5,578 nt of DNA from Escherichia coli (GTDB lineage Bacteria > Pseudomonadota > Gammaproteobacteria > Enterobacterales > Enterobacteriaceae): assembly GCF_003334335.1 (NCBI RefSeq), contig NZ_QOWQ01000076.1. The stretch is one strand, 5' to 3'. Position numbers and translations under genes: made by a program. A model generated the notes under the pieces. That model was not told where the DNA came from, ran no database searches, and saw only the letters and a list, made by a program, of their open reading frames with translations. Of this stretch, positions 1-5,578 are shown in pieces (position 1 is the stretch's first letter; the number at the start of each line of letters is the position of its first letter).

Positions 1-82
1 CTTTATTATCGAGTTCGGTGACCGCCTGGACGGCCACTTCTGAGAAAAGGTATTTACACAGAATCCTGAACAGGCTCCCGTA

Positions 83-118
83 AAGCGGCAACTTTATTGA
101 GTTGCCGCTTTTTTATTC
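83..118 (+). terminator. Rho-independent terminator-like hairpin in the intergenic region downstream of ycaK
   Basis: Inverted repeat AAGCGGCAACT (83-93) / AGTTGCCGCTT (100-110) with 6-nt loop TTATTG, followed on the + strand by a run of seven T then ATT (109-118). On the - strand the stem is followed by only TTTA, so it looks mainly like a terminator for a + strand gene entering from the left (pflA expected by synteny), possibly shared with ycaK. Confidence 0.6.
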
Positions 119-153
119 CGCGCTTCATTCTGCTACAGCGTTTTTAACACATC

Positions 154-744
154 TTATAGTGCATCTACCATATCCCGTACCTGAGATAATAACGACTGAT
201 AATAGCTCGCGTGAAGTTCTTCCCCATCGAATACCACTGTATTACACAAGAAAGTGACATCGGCATCTTCAATACCAAGATAACTGCACATATTTTTTAA
301 ATAATCGCTTATATTTTTTTCCCAGCCCATCTGGACAAATGATTCTTTGTCTCCTCCAACCAGCGCCACCCAACGAACTTTATTGAATGGTAATTTGTGC
401 CCATCTCCATAAGCCAGCCCATTATTCCATACTCTGTCAATATATCCTTTTAGCATTGCCGGGAAGCTGTACCACCAGAGAGGAAAAACCACCACTAACG
501 TGTCATGTTCAAGCAGCTCTGAATAAAGCTGATGAACCTCTGGAGAATAACGTTTATCCATATTCTTCCAGTCTGGTTCATCTTCCGGCGTCATCACTGG
601 GTTGAAATTACGCCGATATAAATCGAGTTCCGTCACCTGTATTTTCCGCTCCATTGCCCGCTGATGGATCGCATCAGCAATATGTGCGGTCAATGAATCA
701 TGACGAGGATGGGCCCATACCAAATAAATACGTTCAGACTGCAT
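154..744 (-). CDS. ycaK: Flavodoxin-fold NAD(P)H dehydrogenase (quinone)-like oxidoreductase, 196 aa
   Basis: ORF of 196 codons, ATG at 744-742, TAA at 156-154. GGAGG Shine-Dalgarno (complement of 752-756) sits 8 nt upstream of the ATG. N-terminal RIYLVWAHPRHDS resembles the AHP motif of the KefF/KefG/MdaB flavodoxin-like quinone reductase family. Length and sequence agree with my recollection of E. coli YcaK; neighbours match the expected order. Confidence 0.88.
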   Translation of the reverse strand: MQSERIYLVWAHPRHDSLTAHIADAIHQRAMERKIQVTELDLYRRNFNPVMTPEDEPDWKNMDKRYSPEVHQLYSELLEHDTLVVVFPLWWYSFPAMLKGYIDRVWNNGLAYGDGHKLPFNKVRWVALVGGDKESFVQMGWEKNISDYLKNMCSYLGIEDADVTFLCNTVVFDGEELHASYYQSLLSQVRDMVDAL

Positions 745-843
745 AATTTTACCTCCACGTTAAGTTCTGGAGCGCACTTTACGCAGGCGGCATAATCCTG
801 TAAACGTGATGATTCAGGATGAGTTAATGAAGGATTTTCACTA
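745..843. promoter_or_regulatory. Divergent ycaK/ycaN promoter region with candidate LysR-type operator dyad
   Basis: 99-bp spacer between divergent start codons. Candidate ycaK promoter on - strand: -35 TTTACA (complement of 799-804), 17-bp spacer, -10 TAAAGT (complement of 776-781). Candidate ycaN -10 CATAAT at 791-796 on + strand, and AAGGA RBS at 830-834 nine nt before ATG 844. Dyad ATCCTG (795-800) N14 CAGGAT (815-820) overlaps the ycaK -35. All hexamers were found by eye and are not experimentally supported. Confidence 0.35.
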
Positions 844-1752
844 ATGCGGATGAATATGTCTGACTTTGCCACTTTCTTTGCCGTGGCCCGTAATCAAAGC
901 TTTCGTGCAGCGGGCGATGAGTTAGGCTTATCCTCGTCCGCCATTAGCCATAGTATTAAAACACTGGAACAACGTCTTAAAATTCGCTTATTCAATCGGA
1001 CAACCCGAAGCGTATCGTTAACGGAAGCGGGTTCTAATCTCTATGAACGATTGCGCCCAGCTTTCGACGAAATTCAGATCATGTTAGATGAGATGAATGA
1101 TTTTCGTCTGACACCGACAGGAACGCTCAAAATCAATGCCGCCCGGGTAGCTGCACGTATATTTTAAATGTCTTTACTGGTTGGTTTCACACGTGAATAT
1201 CCTGATATTAAAGTCGAGCTCACAACTGACGACTCTCTTGTCGATATCGTCCAACAGGGCTTTGACGCTGGCGTTCGACTTAGTTGCATCGTCGAAAAAG
1301 ATATGATCAGCGTGGCGATCGGCCCGCCAGTGAAATTATGTGTAGCAGCAACGCCAGAGTACTTTGCAAGATATGGCAAACCCCGCCATCCTCATGATCT
1401 GCTTAATCATCAATGTGTTGTTTTTCGTTATCCCAGCGGCAAACCTTTCCACTGGCAATTTGCAAAGGAGCTGGAAATTGCTGTCGCAGGAAATATCATT
1501 CTGGATGATGTTGATGCTGAACTGGAGGCCGTTTTGATGGGTGCTGGTATCGGGTATCTGCTCTATGAACAGATCAAGGAGTACCTTGATACTGGTCGTT
1601 TAGAATGTGTACTGGAAGACTGGAGCACAGAGCGTCCAGGCTTCCAGATCTATTATCCAAACCGCCAGTATATGTCCTGCGGCTTGCGCGCATTTCTCGA
1701 TTATGTAAAAACGGGTCAGATCTGCCAGAGTCAGCGTCACCGACCACAATAA
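844..1752 (+). pseudogene. ycaN: LysR-family transcriptional regulator interrupted by in-frame TAA at 1165-1167 (N-terminal HTH fragment 844-1167, effector-domain fragment 1168-1752)
   Basis: One reading frame from ATG 844 to TAA 1750-1752 spans 303 codons; codon 108 is TAA (1165-1167) and is followed immediately by ATG 1168 in the same frame. The 107-aa fragment carries a typical LysR winged-helix HTH (FRAAGDELGLSSSAISHSIKTLEQRLKIRLFNRTTR). The 194-aa fragment begins in the LysR linker/substrate-binding region (LLVGFTREYPDIKVEL). 107+1+194 = 302 codons, the size I recall for intact E. coli YcaN, so this is a point nonsense change rather than a frameshift. Confidence 0.75.
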
Positions 1753-3183
1753 TTATTTACTATTCGCTTTACGCGCCAGCAGCGGGAATATCAGTCCTAA
1801 TCCTACCAGCACAAACGGCGTTGCAACATTCAGCGCCAACTGGAAGGTCCACTCTGCAGTGAAGGCTTCCATTTTCGGGAAGATCCCCGTCAAACAGGCA
1901 AAGGCGGTAAAGGCAAAACACCAAATCCCGACGGTCATTGCCAGAGGCTTATTACGAATAAAGACATATTCTGGTTTATATTTCTGCGCCAAGCGAACGA
2001 CTGCAATAAATGCAACAAATACCCATAAATAACGCAGCGGCATCACTACCGAATTAAGGTTCAACAGCCATTTATAGAGATTGTTCATATCACCAATGCC
2101 GAGAGTCGGCAGCATAATCAGAATCGCCACCAGTACCAGGGTCAGAAAATAGCCATTAACGGGCGTACCAGAAGCGTTGGTACGACATAAACTGGCTGGA
2201 ATATATTTGCTGTCAGCATCACCTAATAGCACTTTAAGCGGGGCATCAATCGAGAATACCAGCGCCGCTACTTGTCCCAGGGTATTCGCAATGGCGTAAA
2301 TCACCATTAAAGTATTACCCATGTTGTAATACTCGCCCAGCTTCTGAAAGGCGTAATACTGACCGTTGGTCATTAAGTCATCCGGGATATTACGCGAATC
2401 AAACATCATCCCCATCGCCAGCGAGCCCAGAATGGCACAAACCGCAACCATCACCGCCAGGCATAACATCCCTTTTGGAAATTCTTTTCCTGGGTTGCGC
2501 GTTTGATTAACGTAAGGAGAAATCTTCTCTGCTCCGCCAACCGCGAAAACCAGCATTGAAATAGTGGTAATGTAGGTAAAGTCGATATGAGGAATGAACG
2601 TTTCCCAGGTAATGTTTGTGGTCGCAATATGCACTTCAGTAATTGCAGGCGCGGTTACCGCCATCGCCACATACAGGAGCGACATAACAAACATAGCAAT
2701 CCCTGCCACAGAACCGACGATTTTCAGCGATTTCATACCGCGTGAAGCAACCCACATAAAGAAGATAAACAGCACCAGCGTTAACCCCTGTAACGCTACG
2801 ACTGAATATTCTTTGATTAGCGAACCGTCGCCTTTCATCGCCCAACCGAGCGCAATCAGAATTGCCTGGGGTTTTTGTGCCAGATAGGGAATATGCACCA
2901 CCCAGTAGGTCCACGCGGCGAGATAAGCCAGTCCGGGTCCCATCGTGTGTTTAATCCAGGTACTGACCCCGCCCTTCCCATCTTTGAAGGTCGAGCCTAA
3001 CTGACCAACAATTAGCGCATAAGGTGTGAAATAGAGTGCAAAGATAAACACCCATGAAAAAACAACCACCAGCCCCTGGTTGGCATAGTTATTAACAACG
3101 TTGCCAAAACCCCAGACAGTGATAAAAGACATCAGCGCAATGTTGTACCATCGCAACTGTTTTTCCTGAACATTCCCAGCCAT
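1753..3183 (-). CDS. ycaM: Putative APC-superfamily permease (amino acid/organocation transporter-like), 476 aa
   Basis: The long - strand ORF ends with TAA at 1755-1753. The biological start is taken as ATG 3183-3181 (MAGNVQEKQLRWYNIAL...), which has AAGGA 9 nt upstream and gives 476 aa, the length I recall for YcaM. The protein is highly hydrophobic with multiple predicted TM segments. The ORF-track start at 3375 is a GTG inside the ycaD terminator stem and is rejected. Confidence 0.85.
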   Translation of the reverse strand: MAGNVQEKQLRWYNIALMSFITVWGFGNVVNNYANQGLVVVFSWVFIFALYFTPYALIVGQLGSTFKDGKGGVSTWIKHTMGPGLAYLAAWTYWVVHIPYLAQKPQAILIALGWAMKGDGSLIKEYSVVALQGLTLVLFIFFMWVASRGMKSLKIVGSVAGIAMFVMSLLYVAMAVTAPAITEVHIATTNITWETFIPHIDFTYITTISMLVFAVGGAEKISPYVNQTRNPGKEFPKGMLCLAVMVAVCAILGSLAMGMMFDSRNIPDDLMTNGQYYAFQKLGEYYNMGNTLMVIYAIANTLGQVAALVFSIDAPLKVLLGDADSKYIPASLCRTNASGTPVNGYFLTLVLVAILIMLPTLGIGDMNNLYKWLLNLNSVVMPLRYLWVFVAFIAVVRLAQKYKPEYVFIRNKPLAMTVGIWCFAFTAFACLTGIFPKMEAFTAEWTFQLALNVATPFVLVGLGLIFPLLARKANSK

Positions 3184-3267
3184 AGACAAATCCTTCGCCA
3201 AAATTAAAGGGGCATCTGTAAAACGAGGGATTATGCGCGGCAAATAAGAAGTGCGGAAATAGCGAAA

Positions 3268-3305
3268 TGCAAAATTATAACCTGCTGCACATTTTATTTT
3301 TAAAC
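3268..3305 (-). promoter_or_regulatory. Candidate sigma70 promoter for ycaM
   Basis: Perfect TATAAT on the - strand (complement of 3274-3279) about 90 nt upstream of ycaM ATG, with an AT-rich upstream region (3291-3305) but no good -35 hexamer. Located downstream of the ycaD terminator, so ycaM is probably transcribed independently. Confidence 0.3.
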
Positions 3306-3340
3306 GAATAAAATTTGGAATAAAGCAAGTCAGATAGAAG

Positions 3341-3384
3341 AAACAAAAAAGCAGAGTGTGAAACAGTAAGTTCACACTCTGCTT
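3341..3384 (-). terminator. Rho-independent terminator of ycaD
   Basis: Perfect 14-bp inverted repeat AAGCAGAGTGTGAA (3349-3362) / TTCACACTCTGCTT (3371-3384) with 8-nt loop. On the - strand the stem is followed by TTTTTTGTTT (complement of 3341-3350). It starts 9 nt after the ycaD stop codon (3393-3395). Confidence 0.8.
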
Positions 3385-3392
3385 GAATTCAT

Positions 3393-4541
3393 TTACACGT
3401 GAGCAACGGGTTTCGGCGTATGACCGGCGTTGCGCAGCAGCATCAGCAAATAGATAAACGATACGCTGGCGATCATGATAAACAATAAATTATCGGAGAA
3501 ATTCTGCATTAGCATAGCGGTAAATGACGGGCCAAGCAGACTTCCCACAGTATAGCTCAACAGTAAGGCCTGGTTCATCGCCACCAGTTGATGATGTTCA
3601 ACTTTCTCGCAAGCCCATGCCATCGCCACCGGATATAGCGTAAAGCCAGCGGCACCGAGGATGAATAACGCTGGGGCCATCGCCGCCTGGCTAAGCATCG
3701 CGATACTGCCGAGAATGACGACAAAGACCTGAACACGCAACACCAGCAGTCGACCAAACTTATCCGCCAGACGTCCAATCGGCCATTGTCCAAGGATACC
3801 CGCACTGACCAGTACCGCCATCCAGAAACCAATGCTGGCATTGCTCACCCCTTTGTGATTGAGGTACAGCGGCATCAGGCCATATAGAGATCCCAGAACG
3901 ATTCCTGAGATAATGCAGCCATTCACGCCAAGCCGCGCCTGACGGAGTTTTAGCATTGACGTAATTGACGTCGAATCATGGTTTTCAGCCTGCTGATTCA
4001 GCACACGCGTAAACAACAGCGGTAAGATCCCTGCCAACGTCAAACCTGTAACCCACGGCAATACGGACATCAGCTCGGTTGAAACTTTGCTGACCAGTAA
4101 CTGGCCTAAAAACGTTCCCACGTAATAAACCATCATATACGCAGCAAGCAAACGCCCACGGTTACGTGACGTCCCACTGCACATCAGCGCGCTCTCAACA
4201 ACCACCCAAATCATGGCACAGCCGACGCCCGCGACAAAACGCCAAGCCAACCAGCTCCAGAATCCAATCATCAGGCCAAGGCCGGCACAGCCAGCGGCAA
4301 AAATGAAGGAGGCCAGATAATAGCTGCGGTTAAAGCCAATGCGCTTAATGACATACCCTGTCAGCAATGTACCGACAAGGTTGCCGGTAAAATAGGATGA
4401 GCTGACAACGCCTACCTGCCATGTGGACATGTGTTCCTGGGCGAGCCAAAGCGGCACGAGTGTATTTAACACCGCAATCGCCAGAGTCAACAAAAGCAGG
4501 CCAGACAGCAAAAGCATGACAGGCTGGGTATACGTGGACAT
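3393..4541 (-). CDS. ycaD: Major facilitator superfamily transporter, 382 aa
   Basis: ORF of 382 codons, ATG 4541-4539, TAA 3395-3393. Contains the MFS signature motif A between predicted TM2 and TM3 ([13 protein letters not shown]) and about 12 hydrophobic segments. Length and sequence match my recollection of E. coli YcaD. The Shine-Dalgarno is weak: no GGAGG-like element in the 15 nt before the ATG. Confidence 0.9.
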
Positions 4542-4854
4542 GAATTAAAACCGTGAGGAAGTTCAAATTTCATGCGCATCATGCCACCGCCAAAAACATT
4601 GTCAATGGGTGAAAATACGCGATATCCCAGCGGCGGTATTATCGATTAATATTACTCATTCATAACGCTAATGCTGAAGAGATGATTAGTCTCATCTGAT
4701 TGTTTTTATTGAACTAACACAAATTTCATACGCTTCGTTCAGTCGAAAAATTTCATGGTCACAGCAAACTCATATTTCCCGTCTATGCTTTCAGAGCAAT
4801 GCATCGCGTCTGATCGATTTCAGACGTACCACTGACTCTCGAAAGGAGAAGAGG
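4542..4854. promoter_or_regulatory. 313-bp divergent ycaD/ycaC control region
   Basis: AT-rich non-coding spacer between divergent start codons. TTGTCAA at 4599-4605 gives a perfect -35 TTGACA on the - strand (complement of 4600-4605) for ycaD, with a weak -10 CATGAT 16 nt downstream. AAATTTCAT occurs three times (4565-4573, 4721-4729, 4748-4756). Strong AGGAG RBS 5-9 nt before ycaC ATG 4855. No convincing ycaC -10/-35 pair was found by eye. Confidence 0.35.
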
Positions 4855-5481
4855 ATGACCAAACCGTATGTTCGTCTTGATAAAAATGATGCTGCCGTTT
4901 TGCTTGTTGATCACCAGGCTGGTTTACTTTCCCTTGTACGGGATATCGAACCCGATAAGTTTAAAAATAACGTGCTGGCGCTGGGTGACCTGGCTAAGTA
5001 TTTCAACTTACCAACTATTCTTACCACCAGTTTTGAAACCGGTCCTAACGGCCCATTAGTTCCAGAACTGAAAGCACAATTCCCCGATACACCTTACATT
5101 GCTCGCCCGGGAAATATTAACGCCTGGGATAACGAAGATTTTGTAAAAGCTGTCAAAGCGACAGGTAAAAAACAGTTAATTATTGCCGGTGTGGTAACCG
5201 AAGTTTGCGTGGCATTCCCGGCGCTTTCAGCCATTGAAGAAGGGTTTGACGTCTTTGTCGTGACTGACGCGTCAGGGACCTTTAATGAAATTACCCGGCA
5301 TTCGGCATGGGATCGCTTGTCGCAAGCTGGTGCGCAATTGATGACATGGTTCGGCGTGGCGTGCGAGCTGCATCGCGACTGGCGTAATGATATTGAAGGA
5401 CTGGCGACGTTGTTCTCTAACCACATTCCTGATTATCGTAATTTGATGACCAGTTATGACACGTTAACGAAGCAGAAATAA
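4855..5481 (+). CDS. ycaC: Isochorismatase-family (cysteine hydrolase) protein, 208 aa
   Basis: ORF of 208 codons with AGGAG Shine-Dalgarno, ATG 4855, TAA 5479-5481. Carries the isochorismatase-family signature: LLVDHQ with the catalytic Asp at residue 19, and a Cys in VVTEVCVAFPA consistent with the catalytic Cys of the Asp-Lys-Cys triad. Length and sequence match my recollection of E. coli YcaC. Confidence 0.9.
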   Translation: MTKPYVRLDKNDAAVLLVDHQAGLLSLVRDIEPDKFKNNVLALGDLAKYFNLPTILTTSFETGPNGPLVPELKAQFPDTPYIARPGNINAWDNEDFVKAVKATGKKQLIIAGVVTEVCVAFPALSAIEEGFDVFVVTDASGTFNEITRHSAWDRLSQAGAQLMTWFGVACELHRDWRNDIEGLATLFSNHIPDYRNLMTSYDTLTKQK

Positions 5482-5515
5482 AAGAGAACCGGGGCCGAAA
5501 CCCATAAGCGCTAAC

Positions 5516-5578
5516 TTAAGGGTTGAACCATCTGAAGAATGCGACGCCTCGGTGCCTCGTTAAGACGATGCCTCGCGT
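5516..5578 (-). CDS. Possible 3' end of a convergent gene, truncated by the window edge (dmsC expected by synteny)
   Basis: The last 60 nt are GC-rich and open on the - strand up to the window edge in two frames: one ends ...TRGIVLTRHRGVAFFRWFNP with stop at 5518-5516, the other ends with stop at 5513-5511. I cannot tell from sequence which frame, if either, is real, and I could not match it to a remembered protein C-terminus. Confidence 0.25.
   Translation of the reverse strand, partial: TRGIVLTRHRGVAFFRWFNP

Follow-up and report, generated by a model that had tools for sequence, protein, structure and literature searches.

The genes ycaD and ycaM of Escherichia coli both encode transporters, lie on the same strand, and are separated by only 209 bp. 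This arrangement raises the question of whether the two genes are transcribed together or whether each forms a transcription unit of its own. We examined this question in a stretch of E. coli DNA of 5,578 nucleotides, here called the window, in which the gene order is ycaK-ycaN-ycaM-ycaD-ycaC. Positions 77-5578 show only two mismatches to E. coli chromosomes such as that of strain ML35, and genes were called from the list of open reading frames together with a RefSeq annotation taken from a near-identical genome that has 2 mismatches in this range. The genes and the ycaM ribosome-binding site are as follows.

154-744, minus strand: ycaK.
844-1752, plus strand: ycaN.
1753-3183, minus strand: coding sequence of ycaM, an APC-family permease of 476 amino acids (open reading frame list, annotation).
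3191-3196, minus strand: Shine-Dalgarno sequence GAAGGA, 7 nt 5' of the ycaM ATG (read from the sequence; AAGGA is conserved in the alignment described below).
3393-4541, minus strand: coding sequence of ycaD, an MFS transporter of 382 amino acids, with its stop codon TAA at 3395-3393 (open reading frame list, RefSeq annotation).
4855-5481, plus strand: ycaC.

The gene names and shared strand given to ycaD and ycaM in the initial annotation are borne out, both genes being on the minus strand in the open reading frame list and the annotation, and the ends of the reading frames at 3393 and 3183 leave the 209-bp spacer (3184-3392) that it described. Between 3150 and 3430, K-12 differs from the window at a single base (3217). 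Because this base lies outside every feature discussed here, published data from K-12 can be transferred to the window.

At its other end, ycaM is convergent with ycaN: the end of ycaN (plus strand, 1752) abuts the ycaM stop codon (minus strand, 1753-1755), with zero spacer and no terminator, and ExcludonFinder lists ycaM-ycaN as a convergent excludon (PMC12288877). In this strain, base 1166 is an A, as opposed to a T in ML35 and other near-identical genomes, which changes codon 108 of ycaN (1165-1167) from TTA (Leu) to TAA and breaks this LysR-type regulator into open reading frames of 107 and 194 amino acids; judged from the sequence, ycaN is probably a pseudogene here. The second difference from the near-identical genomes is a T-to-A change at 4648, in the spacer between ycaC and ycaD.

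Immediately after ycaD, the minus strand carries the two parts of a putative intrinsic terminator.

3349-3384, minus strand: ycaD terminator hairpin, a 14-bp perfect stem with an 8-nt loop (scan, folding, copy number).
3341-3348, minus strand: U-run TTTTGTTT, which runs on from the two T's closing the stem and contains the published RNA 3' end at 3343 (sequence, Term-seq).

The hairpin begins 8 nt past the ycaD stop codon and consists, on the minus strand, of AAGCAGAGTGTGAA (3384-3371), the loop CTTACTGT (3370-3363) and TTCACACTCTGCTT (3362-3349), with G-C pairs at six of the 14 positions of the stem. A Rho-independent terminator is expected to have a stable hairpin containing G+C and a U-run directly 3' of the stem. 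The RNA of the hairpin folds at -23.2 kcal/mol (z = -5.25), an energy equalled by none of 200 dinucleotide shuffles, and it stays intact and unchanged within a 146-nt context reaching back into ycaD, where we detected neither a competing fold nor any sign of an antiterminator. Directly 3' of the closing G-C pair stands UUUUUUGUUU, so that the run consists of six U, a G and three U. The earlier description of a perfect 14-bp stem and U-run at 3341-3384 right after ycaD was therefore exact in its coordinates, and the fold is far beyond chance. A 281-nt query around the hairpin matched E. coli genomes at a median of one place each, and at two at most; because it is single copy in nearly every E. 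coli genome, the hairpin is not a dispersed repeat.

Published transcript ends place RNA termini within this element. Term-seq in MG1655 (Adams et al. 2021, PMC7815308, supplementary files 1 and 3) reports a ycaD 3' end at NC_000913.3 947069(+), classed as 'primary' for ycaD and located 160 nt upstream of ycaM. The 61-nt sequence quoted for this entry is identical to the window, and the entry has a score of 886, against tens of thousands for neighbouring entries, in one of three growth conditions (PMC7815308). The mapped end corresponds to window position 3343, which is the U that follows UUUUUUG, 8 nt beyond the closing G-C pair, so that an in vivo 3' end lies within the U-run, with a weak signal in one of the three conditions. 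Intrinsic terminators usually release RNA in the U-run about 8 nt past the stem. From its place in the file we infer that the entry belongs to the minimal-medium data, and its low score fits a weakly expressed gene.

The same division appears in published lists of transcription units. In a compilation that merges RegulonDB, Palsson data and DOOR (Mao et al. 2015, PMC4634151, additional file 1), b0898 (ycaD) and b0899 (ycaM) form two single-gene unit clusters within one directon, and TransTermHP terminators are assigned once to b0898 and not at all to b0899 (PMC4634151). The upstream end of the ycaD unit is as follows.

4571-4605, minus strand: ycaD promoter, comprising a -35 TTGACA, a 16-nt spacer and a TG-extended -10 CATGAT (4605-4578), with the start at 4571 (scan and published start).

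This TTGACA/TG-CATGAT combination is the best promoter-like site in our scan of the window. Kim et al. 2012 (PMC3415461) mapped a ycaD start with 78 reads to NC_000913.2 945064, 30 nt upstream of ycaD; this is window position 4571, exactly 7 nt 3' of the CATGAT of the best promoter match. The same data set contains no transcription start in the ycaD-ycaM spacer, and assigns to ycaM two weak starts inside ycaD, at window positions 3786 and 3542 with 7 and 15 reads, respectively (PMC3415461). Both lie upstream of the ycaD terminator. The supplementary data of SMRT-Cappable-seq and of ROSE contain no entries for ycaD or ycaM, and in a Salmonella regulator paper ycaM appears only in a list of functional categories. 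The proposal that the two genes are independent units thus agrees with their separate listing (RegulonDB/Palsson/DOOR) and with the mapped 3' end, whereas a start of ycaM within the spacer finds no counterpart in Kim et al. 2012.

A weak FliA (sigma-28) ChIP site of the lowest score class, TATGCTAATGCAGAATTTCTCCGATAAT, has been published at 3487-3514 on the minus strand, and no FliA-dependent RNA change is found there in the published data. Like the start at about 3542, it points toward the ycaD terminator, and from the sequence RNAs of 140-200 nt could arise from the 3' end of ycaD by way of either; more speculatively, the FliA site together with the terminator might yield a short RNA of about 140 nt. 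The -10 of the 3542 start, TATACT, is TATACC in another E. coli. The FliA site and the internal starts both vary at synonymous positions in relatives and are therefore probably incidental.

To place the terminator in a wider context, one genome per species was searched with YcaD, which gave 80 loci; with three earlier E. coli loci, 82 were scorable. ycaM is the next gene after ycaD in Escherichia, several Citrobacter, Salmonella arizonae and diarizonae, Kluyvera, Yokenella and a Pluralibacter genome; most other genera have ycaD directly convergent on pflA. Nearly all 82 loci have a compact hairpin whose start is no more than about 25 nt from the ycaD stop codon, but its sequence is lineage-specific, with separate Escherichia, Salmonella, Citrobacter freundii group, C. 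sedlakii, Kluyvera and Enterobacter types. Folding energy alone was uninformative, with a median of -17.3 kcal/mol after ycaD and -17.7 kcal/mol in windows of ycaD coding sequence. Because this control did not discriminate, we adopted a strict definition of a terminator: a contiguous stem of at least 6 bp, a loop of 3-8 nt and at least 5 T in 8 nt. A terminator of this kind lies no more than about 40 nt from the ycaD stop in 47/82 loci, as opposed to 48/1066 control windows inside ycaD (4.5%); with at least 6 T, the counts were 40/82 and 8/1066. The terminator structure is thus kept in relatives, near-universally as a hairpin and in strict form in 47 loci. Where ycaM follows ycaD, nine of 25 loci passed, all of them Escherichia or Salmonella. 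After ycaD, the hairpins of the Citrobacter freundii group are long and imperfect, with T-rich tails, and those of the Kluyvera group and Yokenella are G-C-rich and lack a U-run.

Pairing is kept in 94% of stem cells across Escherichia. Three stem pairs vary on one side only (G-C to G-U, U-A to U-G and A-U to G-U), an A-C mismatch occurs in O157:H7 and Escherichia sp. MOD1, and there are no compensatory stem changes, because divergence within the genus is too low for covariation. Support for the terminator from relatives consequently comes from replacement of the hairpin between genera rather than from covariation, as the sequences differ by genus without paired changes. ISVsa5, an IS10-type element, interrupts the terminator stem (window about 3372-3386) in strain Res13-Lact-EB12-05. 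Insertions of IS10R or Tn10 between ycaD and ycaM are described in two independent papers (PMC10044804, PMC4735756), which suggests that the terminator region is an IS10 hot spot.

The terminator also marks the edge of a variable block of genes. Of 5425 matched E. coli genomes, 4365 contained the whole junction, and about 1060 matched only from 3343 or 3348 onward. In these partial matches ycaK, ycaN and ycaM are all absent, and ycaD faces pflA. Such ycaM-less E. coli (about 20%) have the same ycaD hairpin, placed 10 nt from the pflA terminator (corresponding to window 82-111), and homology with them breaks at the terminator U-run, at about 3343-3348. At least 80% of the window was covered in only 3320 genomes (those with all three of ycaK, ycaN and ycaM). 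Genomes that have ycaM but lack ycaN-ycaK probably account for some of the resulting gap of about 1045, and part of it may be matches split by IS elements. The form with ycaM and without ycaN-ycaK is found in reference E. coli and in E. albertii, where about 100 nt of the 3' end of ycaN are left. The ycaD-side edge of the variable block (112-3348) coincides with the end of the ycaD transcript, which fits the view of ycaD and its terminator as a self-contained unit.

On the pflA side of this block, approximately positions 1-80 of the window are the end of an IS1414 element (IS256 family; annotated copies are as much as 100% identical over 1-80), where other E. coli carry the 3' end of pflA. The IS1414 end lies 4-5 nt past the expected position of the pflA stop and directly before the pflA terminator hairpin at 82-111 (AAAGCGGCAAC / TTTATTGA / GTTGCCGCTTT, then TTTTATT). 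ycaK, on the opposite strand to this hairpin, ends 43 nt from it, and the hairpin may also serve ycaK.

We then aligned the region upstream of ycaM from 23 spacers, representing six named genera and one further Enterobacteriaceae genome. Amid otherwise diverged sequence, the 23 sequences share two invariant blocks, A and B, which together with two -35-like hexamers define two candidate promoters, P1 and P2.

3298-3303, minus strand: candidate P1 -35-like hexamer TTAAAA (scan; not conserved outside Escherichia and variable within E. coli).
3268-3291, minus strand: block A, TGTGC (3291-3287) N6 TT NN A N TTT, then GCA, including TATAAT (3279-3274), the candidate -10 of P1 (invariant positions in 23 sequences).
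3254-3259, minus strand: candidate P2 -35-like hexamer TTTCCG, 18 nt 5' of CATAAT (position-weight-matrix scan, weak match).
3230-3236, minus strand: block B, GCATAAT, including CATAAT (3235-3230), candidate -10 of P2, from which a start at about 3223 is predicted (invariant in 23/23, flanks diverge).

Block B lies 44 bp downstream of block A, a spacing that is constant save for single-base gaps in two sequences. The initial annotation had proposed an internal promoter on the basis of the perfect TATAAT (complement of 3274-3279), which is the sole copy in the window on either strand. Shuffled windows contained 3.7 +/- 2.1 copies, with at least one in 196/200 shuffles; because shuffles usually contain copies, TATAAT by itself is not beyond chance and is notable only by its position and strand. 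With TTAAAA 18 nt upstream, it forms a site with 10/12 matches to sigma-70 hexamers at a spacing within the usual 16-18 nt. Promoter-like sites as a class were not enriched in the window (12, against 8.8 +/- 2.8 expected). By a simple sigma-70 weight matrix with hexamer frequencies from classic compilations, the hexamer position is the top match in 13/15 spacers of Escherichia, Citrobacter and Salmonella. It reads TATAAT, TATAGT, TAGAGT, TAAAGT or TAAACT, and becomes TGGAAT, TGGAGT or TGTAAT in Kluyvera and one related Enterobacteriaceae genome. A2 is thus lost in 5/6 sequences of the Kluyvera group (K. sichuanensis keeps TAGAGT) and kept in Escherichia, Citrobacter, Salmonella, Pluralibacter and Yokenella; T1, A4 and T6 are invariant. 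CATAAT, by comparison, keeps its key -10 bases in all 23 sequences, and a TTnnCn-type hexamer stands 17-18 nt 5' of it in most, though not, for example, in C. sedlakii or Salmonella. The claim of an internal promoter therefore survives in part: TATAAT is where it was said to be and belongs to a conserved promoter-like module, but the spacer has no start in Kim et al. 2012 and CATAAT is the better conserved hexamer.

Several assignments of sites in this region, most of them compared by eye with consensus sequences, were set aside. As a sigma-54 site (GG-N10-GC), block A fits in E. coli only. As a CRP site, its right half lacks CAC and has an invariant C where CRP prefers A; as a CRP-S site, its spacing is wrong; and for TyrR, NtrC, the mar box or the CytR octamer there is no convincing fit. 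A plus-strand antisense promoter (TGCACA, 17 nt, TAAAAT) has a -10 that is not conserved. The Pluralibacter copy of block A forms a perfect 9-6-9 palindrome, GTGCGAAAC CTTAAA GTTTCGCAC.

Two readings assign the hairpin a role other than that of a terminator separating ycaD from ycaM. In one, the genes form a two-gene operon whose leaky hairpin serves mainly to stabilise or partly attenuate the message, with ycaM expressed mostly by read-through from promoters upstream. This reading is favoured by the position of the sole published ycaM starts (3542 and 3786) inside ycaD and upstream of the hairpin, by a spacer without a mapped start (Kim et al. 2012), by the hairpins without U-runs in the Kluyvera group and Yokenella, and by the A-C stem mismatch in O157:H7 and Escherichia sp. 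MOD1. An operon would, however, have neither terminator nor promoter between its genes. Here the RNA 3' end maps in a canonical run of six U, G and three U after a G-C-closed stem with no rival fold, the genes are listed as separate units, the -10-like GCATAAT upstream of ycaM is invariant in all genera, and the 3542 start is not conserved, given the change of TATACT to TATACC in another E. coli; we regard an operon as quite improbable. The hairpin could instead act mainly as part of a convergent or bidirectional terminator, or as a barrier to antisense transcription from the pflA/ycaN side, its place before ycaM being a by-product of gene insertion or loss. ycaD does converge on pflA in ycaM-less E. 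coli and in most other genera, where the hairpin and the pflA terminator are 10 nt apart, or one element of A-run, hairpin and T-run serves both genes; the plus-strand copy folds equally well (-22.4 kcal/mol); and ycaN-ycaM, convergent without spacer or terminator, is a listed excludon. Yet the plus-strand tail, GAATTCATTT, makes a poor U-run, in contrast to the canonical minus-strand tail, and the mapped 3' end is on the ycaD strand. As the main function of the hairpin this role is unlikely, although it does not conflict with termination of ycaD ahead of a separate ycaM unit.

The remaining alternatives concern what the conserved spacer does. That it encodes an RNA element (a riboswitch, an attenuator or an anti-Shine-Dalgarno leader) or a tiny leader peptide controlling ycaM is already essentially refuted. 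In Escherichia and Citrobacter, pairing is possible between AAUCC(C/U)UCG, which follows block B, and the ribosome-binding region CGAAGGAUU, and ATG TGC AGC AGG TTA TAA (MCSRL) overlaps block A, but neither this anti-Shine-Dalgarno pairing nor the mini-ORF is conserved. The MCSRL frame lacks a ribosome-binding site, and in C. sedlakii and Kluyvera it is either lost or shifted; G-to-A changes in the right half of block A in Citrobacter are uncompensated; RNAalifold found no conserved fold among 19 ycaM leaders (no consensus pairs, energy 0); and Rfam gave no match above noise (best P31, 22.7 bits against a threshold of 40, E = 0.63). Because there is no conserved RNA structure, the blocks are best read as DNA signals, that is, a promoter and a protein-binding site. 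Which hexamer serves as the -10 of ycaM is a closer question. In the reading to which we give nearly an even chance, CATAAT (3235-3230) would be the -10 and TATAAT would lie inside an operator, with block A a regulator site near about -45 to -68. CATAAT is invariant in 23/23 and has its TTnnCn-type hexamer 17-18 nt upstream in most sequences, whereas the TATAAT position, which loses the key A2 in the Kluyvera group, lacks a conserved -35. TGTGC would moreover fall near -66 of P2, a usual position for an activator, whereas in P1 it would sit in the promoter spacer, where sigma-70 reads nothing. An invariant CATAAT with a weak hexamer 17-18 nt upstream is the pattern usual for activator-dependent promoters. 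Against CATAAT as the -10 stand the rank of TTAAAA-18 nt-TATAAT as the highest-scoring site in 13/15 Escherichia, Citrobacter and Salmonella spacers and the invariance of T1, A4 and T6 of its hexamer; against block A as an operator stands its failure to fit, by eye, the consensus of CRP, CRP-S, sigma-54, TyrR, NtrC or the mar box. TATAAT itself may be the -10, with a probability of roughly a third, and both hexamers or neither share what is left. More speculatively, and in our estimate rather improbably, the whole module of about 60 bp might be an operator/promoter through which a putative regulator controls this orphan amino-acid-type permease across Enterobacteriaceae, with TATAAT a part of the operator and not a -10.

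Taken together, these observations very probably reflect two independent units: ycaD with its start at 4571 and its intrinsic end at 3343, and ycaM with a regulated promoter within 3223-3303. A monocistronic ycaD mRNA would start at 4571 from the TTGACA/CATGAT promoter, and RNA polymerase, having transcribed the 14-bp hairpin, would free the RNA in the U-run to leave the 3' end at 3343. The 160 bp from 3343 to the ycaM ATG would then hold a promoter and operator belonging to ycaM and common to enterobacterial genera, with transcription of ycaM presumably starting in the spacer, and the two genes would share a strand by happenstance. Given the weak starts inside ycaD, some read-through into ycaM is possible. 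The terminator and the unit structure are already known, having been predicted, mapped by Term-seq and entered in published compilations, so that this is a routine gene boundary with little significance beyond correct annotation: regulon and operon models should treat ycaD and ycaM as separate units, and polar effects on ycaM from insertions in ycaD should be small. The conserved promoter module offers a handle for finding the regulator of the uncharacterised permease YcaM, and the variable ycaK-ycaN-ycaM block with its edge at the terminator and the IS10-type insertions in the terminator stem are useful side results.

Compared with known systems, the locus is ordinary. Bidirectional terminators between convergent genes have reportedly been described from full-length RNA profiling in E. 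coli, and the loci where ycaD faces pflA resemble them in having either a pair of hairpins back to back or a single hairpin between an A-run and a T-run. The window differs in that ycaM is co-directional and the tail on the opposite strand is a poor U-run, which makes the element one-directional. ycaD and ycaM resemble separate units within one directon in lying on the same strand, 209 bp apart, with a terminator followed by a promoter-like module, and published lists likewise keep them apart; the weak starts inside ycaD are a difference, through which some read-through may occur. The ycaD element is most like the canonical intrinsic terminators of E. coli. It shares their G-C-closed perfect stem, short loop and immediate U-run, stands 8 nt after a stop codon and yields an RNA 3' end 8 nt past the stem. 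With a loop of 8 nt and a stem of 14 bp containing six G-C pairs, it falls at the long, A-U-rich end of the usual range, and nothing essential sets it apart from that class.
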